NCBI GenBank assembly: GCA_038153405.1
Contig: JAYOYH010000011.1
Coordinates: forward strand, 23,050-87,049
Length of the DNA stretch: 64,000 nt
Direction: 5' to 3'
Origin: Gemmatimonadota bacterium
GTDB lineage: Bacteria > Latescibacterota > UBA2968 > UBA8231
This document shows, in pieces, positions 7,160 to 55,259 of this stretch (position 1 is its first letter; the number at the start of each line of letters is the position of its first letter). The notes under the pieces are model-generated. The model was not told the DNA's origin, did no database searches, and saw only the letters and a list, made by a program, of their open reading frames with translations. The position numbers and the translations under genes are program-made.

Positions 7160-9724
7160 TCAGCTCTTCTTTTTCTCGCCGGCTTCGGCGCGCTGCTGGC
7201 CCATGTAGAGGACCGGGCTGGCGATAAAGACCGAGGAATAGGTACCAACCAACACGCCAATAATAAGCGTGATCGTGAAGTCTCGGTTTACCTCACCGCC
7301 AAATAGCATCAGCACGATGACCGCTACCAGCGTCGTCAGCGAGGTAATCAGGGTTCGGCTCAAGCACTCGTTGATGCTCAAGTTGATCGTGCCGGCTAAC
7401 CCCTCGCGGCGCACGATGGGCAGGTTTTCGCGAATGCGGTCAAATACCACAATCGTGTCGTTGAGCGAGTATCCCACTATGGCCAGCAGGCCGGCCACTA
7501 CGGCCAGCGAAATCTCCACGCCCAGCAGCGAGAGCAAACCAATCGTAATGAGCACGTCGTGAAAGAGCGCGGCCACGGCGGCAATGCCGTAGAGAAAGCG
7601 ATGGAAGCGCCAGGCCATATATACGAGGATCAGCGCCAGCGCTACCAGCACGGCTTCCACAGCAGCCGCGCTGAGTTCTTCGCCAATTTTGGGTCCGACC
7701 TTCTCCTGGCGACGAATCCAGTCGAGACTCTGCGTGCTGTTGGGAAAGCTCGACTTTATCGACGCCATGATACCCGTGGCAACTTCTGTGCCCGCCTCGC
7801 TCTCGCTGACGCGAATGAGGATGTCGTTGGGCGAGCCAAACTGTTTTATCTCGCTCTTGCTAAAATCCATATTCTTGTCGCCCACCCCGACCTGCCCCAA
7901 CGCACCGCGCACATCTTCCACTTTTAGCGCTGGCTCAAAGTGCAGTTCCAACAGCGTGCCGCCGGCAAAGTCGATGCCTGGACGCAGTCCATTGACAGCG
8001 ACGACCGACACCAAGCCCGCTACGAGCAAAGCGCCTGAGGCAAAGAACCCAAGCTGGCGCTTGCTCAAAAACGCGATGCGAGAATTGGCGAGAAAACCGA
8101 TGGGGCCAATGCTCAAGGACTGCGATCCGCTGCCGCGCGTCAGCAAGTCAAAGACCGCCCGGGTGACAAAGAAGGCCGTGAACAAGCTCGAAATGATGCC
8201 GATGCACAGCGTAAGGGCAAAACCGCGTATCGGACCCGTGCCAAACTGGTAGAGCACGATGCCAACCAGAAAGGTCGTCACGTTGGCGTCGATAATGGCC
8301 GATAGGGCATTGTTGTAGCCACTGTCTATGGCCGCTCTCACCGTCTTGCCCGCGCGCAGTTCCTCTCGGATGCGCTCAAAAATGAGCACGTTGGCATCGA
8401 CCGCCATGCCGATGGTGAGGATGATACCAGCGATACCTGGCAGCGTCAACGTGGCGTGAAAGCCGGCCAGAATTGCCATGACAAAACCCATATTGAGCAC
8501 CAGCGCGATGTCGGCGATAACGCCGGCAGAGCGATAGTAGACAACCATGAAAAAGACCACGAGGATCATGCTGTAGAGCGCCGCCGTCTTGCCCTGCTCA
8601 ATGGAGTCCCTCCCCAGCGACGGGCCCACCGTGCGGTCTTCGATAATCTCCACTTCGGCGGGCAGCGCGCCGGCGCGCAGTACGATGGCCAGATCTTTCG
8701 CCTCGTCCTGCGATCCGCTACCGGTGATAATTCCGCGCCCCTCGGTAATTTTCGTTTGAATGGTCGGCGCCGAGTAAACGGCTTCGTCTAGAACGATGGC
8801 CATGCGCTCGCCAATGTGCGCCCCGGTGACGCGCGAGAACTGACGCACGCCCTCGTCGGTCGTGGCAAAGTTGACAATCGGCTGACCCAAGTATTCGACG
8901 TTCTGGCCGACGGAGACATAAGCATCTTGCAGCATATCGCCGGTCATTTCTGGCCGCGAACGCACCAAGTAGACGATGTAATACTGGTTTCCAGCCATGC
9001 CCTCAGCCTTGCTGGAAAAAACGAACTCCACGTCCTTGGGCATCGCGCCGCGCGCAGTCGGCGAGTTGAGGATGCCCTTGACGCGCGGCAGGTCGCGCGC
9101 GCTCACGGCAATATCGCCGGTAGCCAACGGCACCAGCAGCGAAACCAGACTGCGCTCACCGCCGTCCGCTTCGGGCTGTGCGTCGCTCTCCTCAAAGAGA
9201 CTCATCTCTTCCACAGGTTCCGACTCCGCCGTATCGGCCTTGGCCGGTGCGGTCAGCGTATTAATGCGCTGCAGCAGGCGGTTGCGCTCGTCATCGGGCT
9301 CCAAGAGCTGAAATTCGAGCAGCGCTGTTTGTCCGACCAAGTCCTTGGCGCGCTGCACGTCCTGCACGCCGGGAAGCTCTATGATGATGCGGTTGTCACC
9401 TTGGCGCTGAATCGTCGGTTCGGCCACGCCGAACTGATCGATTCGATTGCGAATGATTTCCTGCGCACGCGCTACTGCATCCTGCGCTTCTTCCAGGGCG
9501 AGCCCTTCGGTTTGCACCTCTAGCACGAGGTGAATTCCACCCTGTAAATCGAGTCCCAAATTGAGGGAGCGCTTGTGCAAATCAGCCAGCGCTTCCGGCG
9601 CACTCAGGTCCATCGCCGAGCGCTCCTCTGCCGACATGCCGTAGTACTTGATGCTCGGAAGCAGGTAGTAGACCCCAGCGGCGATCAGCGCCAGAATCAG
9701 TATGAGTTTCCAATTGCGTTTCAT
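7160..9724 (-). CDS. secDF: Fused protein translocase subunit SecDF
   Basis: LGLDLQGG, RNRIDQFGVAEP, GPSLG, GMAVDANVLIFERIREE (SecD) followed by GIDFAGG and GYSLNDTIVVFDRIREN (SecF). Confidence 0.96.
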   Translation of the reverse strand: MKRNWKLILILALIAAGVYYLLPSIKYYGMSAEERSAMDLSAPEALADLHKRSLNLGLDLQGGIHLVLEVQTEGLALEEAQDAVARAQEIIRNRIDQFGVAEPTIQRQGDNRIIIELPGVQDVQRAKDLVGQTALLEFQLLEPDDERNRLLQRINTLTAPAKADTAESEPVEEMSLFEESDAQPEADGGERSLVSLLVPLATGDIAVSARDLPRVKGILNSPTARGAMPKDVEFVFSSKAEGMAGNQYYIVYLVRSRPEMTGDMLQDAYVSVGQNVEYLGQPIVNFATTDEGVRQFSRVTGAHIGERMAIVLDEAVYSAPTIQTKITEGRGIITGSGSQDEAKDLAIVLRAGALPAEVEIIEDRTVGPSLGRDSIEQGKTAALYSMILVVFFMVVYYRSAGVIADIALVLNMGFVMAILAGFHATLTLPGIAGIILTIGMAVDANVLIFERIREELRAGKTVRAAIDSGYNNALSAIIDANVTTFLVGIVLYQFGTGPIRGFALTLCIGIISSLFTAFFVTRAVFDLLTRGSGSQSLSIGPIGFLANSRIAFLSKRQLGFFASGALLVAGLVSVVAVNGLRPGIDFAGGTLLELHFEPALKVEDVRGALGQVGVGDKNMDFSKSEIKQFGSPNDILIRVSESEAGTEVATGIMASIKSSFPNSTQSLDWIRRQEKVGPKIGEELSAAAVEAVLVALALILVYMAWRFHRFLYGIAAVAALFHDVLITIGLLSLLGVEISLAVVAGLLAIVGYSLNDTIVVFDRIRENLPIVRREGLAGTINLSINECLSRTLITSLTTLVAVIVLMLFGGEVNRDFTITLIIGVLVGTYSSVFIASPVLYMGQQRAEAGEKKKS

Positions 9725-53432: not shown

Positions 53433-53555
53433 GCTCTTTTCCGCTTCGCCATCGCCCCTTCGCCACCCACAACCCCAACGGTCATAGCGCCGCACGTCCG
53501 CGCGCGCTGAGGGCGAGCGAAAAGCGTACATCGACACCACGCTTTAGGCAGCGCG

Positions 53556-53825
53556 TCACTCGCTGCGTTTTTCAATATGCGCCCGCACCAGTTTAATCAT
53601 CTCGCCATCCTCTGCGGCGGCGGCTACCATCGCCTTGAACTCTTCCACTGTGATTTTCACTTCCTCCAGGAAGCGCTGATCAGCCGCTCACGGAAATACG
53701 TAATCGCCAATGCGCCCCTCGTTGACCGCGCGCGCCTTGTCGGTGATGCGCGCCAACCAAGGGATATCGCCGATGACCATGCCGCGCGCGCGCGGCTTGA
53801 AGTCGAGAATGTCCCAATCACTCAT
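53556..53825 (-). CDS. DUF5069-like protein, candidate selenoprotein (Sec at codon 46)
   Basis: MSDWDILDFKPRARGMVIGDIPWLARITDKARAVNEGRIGDYVFP-[TGA 53690-53688]-AADQRFLEEVKITVEEFKAMVAAAAEDGEMIKLVRAHIEKRSE*; frame stays open 43 codons past the TGA; GGAG/GGGA RBS. Confidence 0.78.
53658..53675 (-). promoter_or_regulatory. Candidate bacterial SECIS hairpin
   Basis: CGCUUCC-UGGA-GGAAGUG, a 7-bp stem starting 12 nt 3' of the in-frame UGA. Confidence 0.6.
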
Positions 53826-53847
53826 GATTCCCTTTGCTCCTCGTGCA

Positions 53848-54879
53848 TTAATTCGATGTGAAAGCGGCGCGCATGTGGCATATATCCTCATCATCGCCCA
53901 ACGGCTCGCTCAGCGCGCGCGCAATGGCCTGCAGCCGTTCACACGGGTTCTGCCAGGCGCGCAGCAGCGCGGCATTGGCCGATTCAAGTGGATGCTCGAG
54001 CGCTTCGCACAGGGCCGCCGCCGCGTTGAGCAAGAAGGCAATCTGGTGTCCTTCCAGCGCGCGCACGACGCCTGAGTCACCGGTCAACTCAGCGTAGAAA
54101 CGGGCCGCACGCGCATTCAACACAGAGCGCACGACGCCGTTGCAGCGCCCGCTGCCCATGCTAGTAGTATACTGCACGATGCGGCGTTCCGTCCAGTCCC
54201 AGCTCAATTTAGAAAATTCGAGGAAAAATGCCGCACGCACCGGCGATATGACGATGTTGCGCGCGTTGTAATCGCTGCTGCCCAACACGGGCGGACGCCG
54301 CGCCAACTCGGAGCAGAGTGCGGCGATCAGATCGAGTGCGGCGCCGCTCAGCGGTGGGCACTGCAGATGACGCTGCAGCGCATGGCCCCCCCAGAGGGCT
54401 CGCTCGCTCGCCAACTGCCAGGCAACGAGCAGATCCTGCTGGCTACCGCCCGGCGCGACGCGCTGCGCCCACCGCTCGTCGCACATTAGCACACCGTCAA
54501 TGGAGCGCTGGTTGCGCATCACATCGCATGCCAACGCGGTATGGTCGCCACAACGCTCCTGCACCAGATCGTCTAGAGTTGCATCGCCGACCCACTCGTA
54601 GAAGGCGAAGCACGCCTCTGAGTCAAGGGCTACCATGGCTGGCACGCGGCAACCGGCTCCGCCCAGCGCGCACAGCACATCGCGCTCGACCTCCAATACG
54701 TCGTATGCTTTGCCGCGCGTCAGGGGGGCGAAGATATGATATTTGACAGCGCGCCTTTTGCCGTCGACGCACAGGCACCACACGCCCGAGTCGATCTCTT
54801 CAATGCGCTGGACGATGCCGCCCAATAGTTCGGGGACGCGTCGCCTGAGATAGGCATCCACCTCCCCGTAGGCTTCCAT
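53848..54879 (-). CDS. Aminoglycoside phosphotransferase / protein-kinase-like fold protein (atypical)
   Basis: AVK, VP.M, YEWVG, catalytic-loop-like SSDYNARNIVI, FFLEFS in place of DF. Confidence 0.6.
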   Translation of the reverse strand: MEAYGEVDAYLRRRVPELLGGIVQRIEEIDSGVWCLCVDGKRRAVKYHIFAPLTRGKAYDVLEVERDVLCALGGAGCRVPAMVALDSEACFAFYEWVGDATLDDLVQERCGDHTALACDVMRNQRSIDGVLMCDERWAQRVAPGGSQQDLLVAWQLASERALWGGHALQRHLQCPPLSGAALDLIAALCSELARRPPVLGSSDYNARNIVISPVRAAFFLEFSKLSWDWTERRIVQYTTSMGSGRCNGVVRSVLNARAARFYAELTGDSGVVRALEGHQIAFLLNAAAALCEALEHPLESANAALLRAWQNPCERLQAIARALSEPLGDDEDICHMRAAFTSN

Positions 54880-55259
54880 TAAGCGTCCTCGGCCTCGAAG
54901 ACGATGACCTGTGCGACGAGCTTGCCGGCTTGGTTATTGCGCTCGGGATGCTCGTTCATCGCAAAGAATATGACGCCTTCCTCTTTACAGATAAAATCGC
55001 AGCGCGCGCCGATAGCAAAAGCCTCGCCGCTGCCTATCCGCGCAATGAGCGCACCGACGTTTGCCCCCGGCATGCGATAGCCCTCACCGGCGGGAAAGCG
55101 ATAGAGCCCATCCGCGCCGCACCAGGCAATTTGGTCGCGCATATCGGGCGACCATGTCTCTTCGGCATCGACGACAATCCGCTGTCCTTGCTTCACGCGG
55201 ATCAGCGAGTCCTGCCATTGCGGACTCGGGCGTATTGTGCGCATAATAGTGACGGCCAT
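54879..55259 (-). CDS. LecA/PA-IL-like beta-sandwich (putative lectin)
   Basis: WQDSLIRVKQGQRI, TWS, WCGADG, PGANVGALIARIG, F.IG, G.IFFAMNE, N.AG.L; ATG 55259; TAATG overlap with the kinase gene. Confidence 0.6.
   Translation of the reverse strand: MAVTIMRTIRPSPQWQDSLIRVKQGQRIVVDAEETWSPDMRDQIAWCGADGLYRFPAGEGYRMPGANVGALIARIGSGEAFAIGARCDFICKEEGVIFFAMNEHPERNNQAGKLVAQVIVFEAEDA

Follow-up and report, generated by a model that had tools for sequence, protein, structure and literature searches.

A candidate selenocysteine-insertion hairpin in a DUF5069 gene of a Latescibacterota-type bacterium

In Escherichia coli, the complex of SelB, GTP and selenocysteyl-tRNA (Sec-tRNA) binds the loop and upper stem of the selenocysteine insertion sequence (SECIS), and the SECIS of fdhF has a bulged U in its upper stem. 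Selenocysteine (Sec) usually marks redox-active, reactive residues, and thiolates are stabilized by helix starts. The model of the bacterial SECIS comprises an apical loop of 3–9 nt on a stem of 4–16 bp, a G within the first two loop positions that is usually followed by G or U, a distance of 16–37 nt from UGA to loop and a free energy of -7.5 kcal/mol or lower (PMC13188914). Table 1 of the same source catalogues 119 prokaryotic selenoprotein families. The family DUF5069 (PF16798) is absent from that table, in which two strings reading '5069' are accession numbers. It is likewise not named in the accessible parts of PMC12013277, including four of its supplements, nor in the accessible parts of PMC13326102, whose BSepDB family table possibly lies outside the scope of the search. 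The literature searched yielded no mention of DUF5069 or PF16798 and nothing connecting selenocysteine with Latescibacterota and Poribacteria, and the listed matches to 3OMD, a solved structure related to this family, were unrelated by title.

The window analysed here is a stretch of 64,000 nt from a Gemmatimonadota bacterium that GTDB places in the Latescibacterota (assembly GCA_038153405.1, contig JAYOYH010000011.1, positions 23,050 to 87,049 of the forward strand). A DUF5069 gene on its minus strand carries a TGA within the reading frame, and the features of this locus are as follows.

53848..54879, minus strand: upstream co-oriented APH/kinase-like gene, 343 aa (atlas matches to APH-type clusters, 0.98–0.99)
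53837..53842, minus strand: GAGGAG, likely ribosome-binding site, 11 nt ahead of the ATG (from sequence)
53556..53825, minus strand: DUF5069 gene from the ATG at 53825 to the stop TGA at 53558-53556, 89 aa if the internal TGA is read through (Pfam and structure match)
53688..53690, minus strand: in-frame TGA, codon 46, predicted selenocysteine (aligns with the Cys found in Cys-type homologues and in PDB 3omd)
53676..53687, minus strand: spacer of 12 nt between UGA and stem (sequence)
53658..53675, minus strand: candidate SECIS hairpin, 7-bp stem and UGGA loop, within the coding sequence, codons 51-56 (folding and orthologue comparison)
53675-53669, minus strand: 5' arm of the hairpin (sequence)
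53668-53665, minus strand: UGGA loop of the hairpin (sequence)
53664-53658, minus strand: 3' arm of the hairpin (sequence)

Codon 46 is almost certainly decoded as Sec, which would make the product an 89-residue selenoprotein, and the hairpin that follows it is, with a probability of about 0.9, a working bacterial SECIS; both predictions derive from sequence comparison. If the E. coli model applies, SelB carrying Sec-tRNA would bind the G-containing loop and upper stem when the UGA enters the A site, and without selenium the ribosome would stop at the UGA and release a 45-residue piece.

The geometry described in an earlier note on this DNA, namely a 12-nt spacer, a 7-bp stem with one G-U pair and a UGGA tetraloop, proved exact on the minus strand, both in the sequence and in RNAfold. 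The 7-bp stem appeared in the centroid for a 33-nt piece and in both the minimum free energy structure and the centroid for a 64-nt piece. The free energy of the hairpin is -8.0 kcal/mol and that of the 33-nt piece -8.7 kcal/mol; in many orthologues the bare hairpin core reaches only about -6 kcal/mol. With a 4-nt loop on 7 bp, the letters UGGA, a loop 19 nt downstream of the UGA as set by the spacer, and -8.0 kcal/mol, the hairpin lies within all four limits of the published model (PMC13188914). It also resembles the consensus in lying within the coding sequence just 3' of the UGA and in having G at loop position 2, followed by another G. Unlike the fdhF SECIS, it has no bulged U in the upper stem. 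A search of Rfam found no family matching the hairpin, the three matches returned (E 1.5–3.4) being without meaning. The element is apparently an ordinary bacterial SECIS, and what it appears to mark is a seemingly uncatalogued selenoprotein family, present in a lineage of Latescibacterota type and in Poribacteria.

Taken alone, the hairpin is weak evidence and barely beyond chance, since the encoded Phe-Leu-Glu-Glu favours a stem. Against dinucleotide shuffles the 33-nt piece had a z-score of -0.08 and was equalled by 86 of 200 shuffles, and the 64-nt piece had a z-score of -0.16 and was equalled by 76 of 200. When the same peptide was recoded synonymously with the codon usage of the genome, 39 of 5000 recodings attained the observed energy, and 46% of the 5000 retained at least six in-register pairs. 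The expectation that the hairpin would be more stable than controls therefore held against synonymous recodings and failed against dinucleotide shuffles. Of 3000 Cys codons and 1095 TGA stops in the same genome, 2003 and 705 were followed by a hairpin fitting a loose model, and 183 and 67 by a model-type hairpin at least as stable as the observed one. Under narrow limits that were fitted after the hairpin was known (at least seven pairs and a loop of at most 5 nt starting 16–22 nt on), these numbers fell to 17 of 3000 and 7 of 1095. Model-like hairpins at -5 kcal/mol or lower were found at 7187 of 101,708 TGA triplets genome-wide, and on this count the suggestion that the hairpin by itself gives independent support for Sec decoding was not borne out. 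A scan of the genome for SECIS elements first was discarded as too noisy for the same reason. The case for the predicted SECIS is the comparative pattern, not the single sequence.

Within the phylum, 168 genomes were searched, of which 119 had an orthologue at E 5e-19 or better; one further genome had a distant match only. One TGA was present in the orthologue of 104 of these 119 genomes, spread over four families, and none in the other 15; families f5–f14 gave no match to the query at E 1e-9 in any of 36 genomes. At the codon level, 91 genome loci were read, with TGA at codon 46 in 76 and Cys in 15. Scored as an in-register stem of at least six pairs whose loop begins with UGG, the hairpin was present in 75 of the 76 TGA orthologues and in none of the 15 Cys orthologues. 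Among 78 metagenome loci, two of which lacked coverage of the site and some of which duplicate genomes already counted, it was present in 34 of 40 TGA loci and 0 of 36 Cys loci; the six misses comprised two loci with five pairs and four with a shifted form like that of locus L055. When both sets were pooled and duplicates removed, the hairpin occurred in 97 of 101 TGA rows and in none of 42 Cys rows. Conservation with TGA and loss with Cys, as expected of a SECIS, thus held in genomes and metagenomes alike, and the earlier note's proposal that the hairpin supports Sec decoding was upheld by this comparison. As the hairpin is kept with UGA in nearly all relatives and lost with Cys in all, it is very likely a Sec-insertion signal.

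The shifted form is itself a variant SECIS candidate, seen in L055, L150, L151, L154 and L155, in which a Glu to Asp change breaks the closing pair. The fold obtained for L055 has a bulged U in the stem and a loop of 5 nt.

It could be argued that the UGA encodes Sec while the hairpin merely follows from the conserved Phe-Leu-Glu-Glu and is no working SECIS, as the 46% of recodings that retain the pairs and the z-scores near 0 would allow; the codons, however, are frozen only at the hairpin. In the first 41 TGA loci, to which these counts refer, the hairpin Leu is CTG in 41 of 41 (52 of 184 elsewhere in the same genes), the Phe is TTC in 39 of 41 (61 of 111 elsewhere), the first Glu is GAG in 40 of 40 (76 of 186 elsewhere) and the second Glu is GAA in 38 of 38 (110 of 186 elsewhere). 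The choice of TTC, which makes up 34% of Phe codons in this genome, runs against the genome preference. The stem is also broken in Cys rows with the same peptide: each of three Cys rows still encoding Phe-Leu-Glu-Glu has lost part of it, and in L056 and L057, two Cys genes that branch within a TGA clade and encode a near-identical peptide, one synonymous change each breaks a stem pair. A Cys orthologue from a genome without selA and selB (L033) does retain a 7-bp stem, as a by-product would, but with a UACA loop, whereas the letters UGGA are kept in all 116 TGA loci read (76 of 76 in genomes, 40 of 40 in metagenomes) and in only 3 of 15 Cys genome loci. On this evidence a mere by-product is improbable. 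The comparison of L056 and L057 with their TGA sisters offers a natural experiment on the SECIS bases that SelB requires.

Across the orthologues, the hairpin predicted to work as a SECIS is far beyond chance. In TGA rows 94% of the cells are paired, a value reached by none of 500 shuffles and compared with 25–66% in slid controls; in Cys rows the value is 76%, which 55 of 500 shuffles reached. RNAalifold recovered the same six-pair core unaided, departures within the hairpin of TGA rows mostly preserve pairing through G-U, and the spacer has no indels across 41 aligned TGA orthologues. At one stem pair, 64 of the 101 non-redundant TGA rows have C-G, the other 37 have G-C and none is broken, whereas the same position is paired in three of nine Cys rows; the flip is a single event on the tree and is accompanied by amino-acid changes. 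No conserved lower stem was found among the orthologues, and in 9 of 41 TGA orthologues the pairing probability of the hairpin falls below 0.1 in longer context. The trees require four or six switches between TGA and Cys, depending on the tree. Well-supported branches provide two independent TGA/Cys pairs, none contrary to the pattern, and with so few switches the sign test (p 0.5) is unable to reach significance.

The machinery for Sec is largely present in this genome, with selA, selB and selD all above their cut-offs (560, 341 and 356 bits). The gene for tRNA-Sec (selC) was not found in the assembly, which is 93% complete in 93 contigs; a tRNA-Sec with a UCA anticodon was found in two of three same-genus genomes searched, both times at a contig end. 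In a set of 61 genomes, each of the 43 with the TGA form has at least one of selA and selB, and 41 have both. Five of the 61 have neither gene; three of these carry the Cys form and two have no orthologue. Since six of nine Cys carriers retain both selA and selB, the Cys form does not require loss of the machinery.

Reading of the TGA as another residue, whether a reassigned code gave Trp or Gly or leaky read-through gave Cys or Trp, is very improbable. Trp does stand at this site in two database proteins (P0041 and P0118), which are probably artefacts of gene callers run under another code; the aligned residue is Cys, not Trp, and genomes without selA and selB have Cys codons at this position. 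TGA is an ordinary stop in this genome, ending 1095 of 3006 long open reading frames and the DUF5069 gene itself, which rules out a reassigned code. That the TGA is a true stop, whether in a pseudogene with a nonsense mutation, through misassembly or in a split gene, can hardly be entertained: gene callers do end the protein exactly ahead of this column in 12 of the best 150 database representatives, and selC was not found, but the TGA recurs at this position in 104 of 119 genomes of four families (codon read directly in 76), the 167 loci read have only TGA, TGC or TGT there, and both halves of the protein are conserved in frame and modelled as one folded domain.

Decoding of UGA as Sec is further expected for other genes of the genome. 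The selD gene itself has an in-frame TGA followed by a 7-bp stem and a GGUC loop 17 nt on, a layout that agrees with that of the DUF5069 hairpin. A TGA also stands at the catalytic position of genes for a Bcp peroxiredoxin, a redoxin with UxxC, an ArsC and a SelW-like protein. Three of these four have a short stem and a G-containing loop 16–22 nt on, and the ArsC gene has no clear fit to the model. The five predicted loci (L209-L212 and L023) lie at C3:51510(-), C51:30001(+), C45:22345(+), C18:36678(-) and C77:1753(+), in the order Bcp peroxiredoxin, redoxin, ArsC, SelW-like and SelD. The UxxC redoxin is fused to a C-terminal domain of FlgD-Ig/T9SS type. A coding-score filter applied to the TGA scan left 277 candidates, from which members of known selenoprotein families were chosen by eye, so that six selenoprotein genes in this genome is a minimum.

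The 89-residue product matches Pfam DUF5069 with E 6e-15 over residues 11-88, which span both sides of the TGA, and with 56 bits against a gathering cut-off of 27. It differs from the Pfam model in being a short form that covers positions 4-81 of 133, and no NCBIfam model matched it at E up to 0.1. The AlphaFold model (pLDDT 85.5) contains four helices, lacks any strand of at least three residues and places residue 46 immediately ahead of the helix 47-55. The closest structure, PDB 3omd, is an uncharacterized protein from Leptospirillum rubarum; by sequence (E 8e-11) its Cys aligns with codon 46, and by structure 84 residues align with Z 11.7, rmsd 2.7 and TM 0.80. It was the sole clear match in the fold searches, all others having Z of 4.0 or less. 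The two proteins differ in that 3omd has Cys where the DUF5069 gene has TGA and a predicted SECIS, and no function is recorded for either. A natural Cys homologue used as query against the atlas matched DUF5069 clusters and nothing else, and a weak search for longer, fused homologues found none. Longer upstream open frames in genus g14 were considered as fusions; they look like overlap that is non-coding, and the ATG keeps its usual position. One RNA contig from run X2, 157 letters long at a depth of 2.3 and with one unplaced difference, covers the TGA and the hairpin; because RNA contigs carry neither strand nor level, it is not counted as proof of expression.

The predicted Sec46 is the sole Cys or Sec of the chain, with no CxxC or UxxC partner, and stands in the motif Tyr-x-[Phe/Tyr]-Pro-Sec-x-x-Asp. 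The best 150 of the 423 distant relatives gave a sample of 170 domains, in which the codon-46 column is Cys in 111 of 153 covered domains, including 105 of 119 single-domain proteins. Arg26 (164 of 165), Asp29 (162 of 166), Lys30 (164 of 165) and Asp49 (147 of 153) are near-invariant, and the Cys is less conserved. It is replaced in repeat-domain paralogues, including the three-domain DUF5069 protein of the same genome, a 438-aa frame at C9:65836-67095 (L199-L201) with three tandem domains, none of which has the conserved Cys; similar repeat proteins are present in many relatives. The four near-invariant residues may form a putative binding or catalytic site, with the Cys or Sec as the reactive centre in single-domain forms. 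The chances are slightly better than even that Sec46 acts beside them as a reactive selenolate, serving as a redox or nucleophilic centre.

In its pairs of Sec and Cys homologues, its single Sec and its canonical SECIS, the DUF5069 family resembles the catalogued prokaryotic selenoproteins. It differs from thioredoxin-fold selenoproteins in being all-alpha, with no CxxU or UxxC motif and no second Cys. It seems reasonably likely that DUF5069 is an unrecognized all-alpha, non-thioredoxin selenoprotein family, mostly with Sec in an uncultured class and in Poribacteria, that has switched repeatedly between Sec and Cys, uses Sec as its catalytic centre, and represents a novel kind of small selenoenzyme, split in two by gene callers. 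The family is missing from the 2026 catalogue, although its TGA form is found in 104 of the 168 phylum genomes searched and databases store truncated halves. As Sec usually marks a reactive residue, DUF5069, with its solved structure 3omd and many Cys homologues, gains a first testable active-site candidate.

Outside the phylum genomes, 13 metagenome loci form a shorter TGA group whose neighbouring genes cluster with proteins named Candidatus Poribacteria. The names given to Cys homologues, like the cluster to which the upstream gene belongs, point to Candidatus Latescibacterota as the probable phylum of the main lineage, and one Cys group is named Chloroflexota. In one Chloroflexota-named locus (L171:913-1779), two tandem Cys-type DUF5069 genes are followed by a glyoxalase-family gene.

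The genes around the DUF5069 gene indicated no general function, substrate or general redox neighbour. The APH/kinase-like gene had no Pfam match; it is a conserved neighbour in the family, with homologous frames upstream in 54 loci of 12 genera. Together with a 125-aa gene (the two span 53848-55256 of the window, minus strand), it precedes the DUF5069 gene in 11–12 genera of family f1. The 125-aa gene had no Pfam or PDB match, and it is perhaps reminiscent of LecA-type lectin domains. An RsmD-like methyltransferase lies upstream in other families, and an NAD-binding oxidoreductase (PF00175) downstream in three genera, in Sec and Cys carriers alike (L103:599-1534 and 25 other loci). Among the 13 Poribacteria-type loci, a glutaredoxin-thioredoxin reductase fusion lies upstream in four and pheA downstream in 12; in L158, L159, L161 and L162 the Sec-DUF5069 gene stands directly after the fusion and before pheA. 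The fusion is a possible redox partner in those 4 of 13 loci only. In the window itself, the true stop TGA of the DUF5069 gene falls inside the loop of a 6-bp GC-rich inverted repeat (53548-53566), which is terminator-like on the plus strand; 0.6 such sites are expected by chance.
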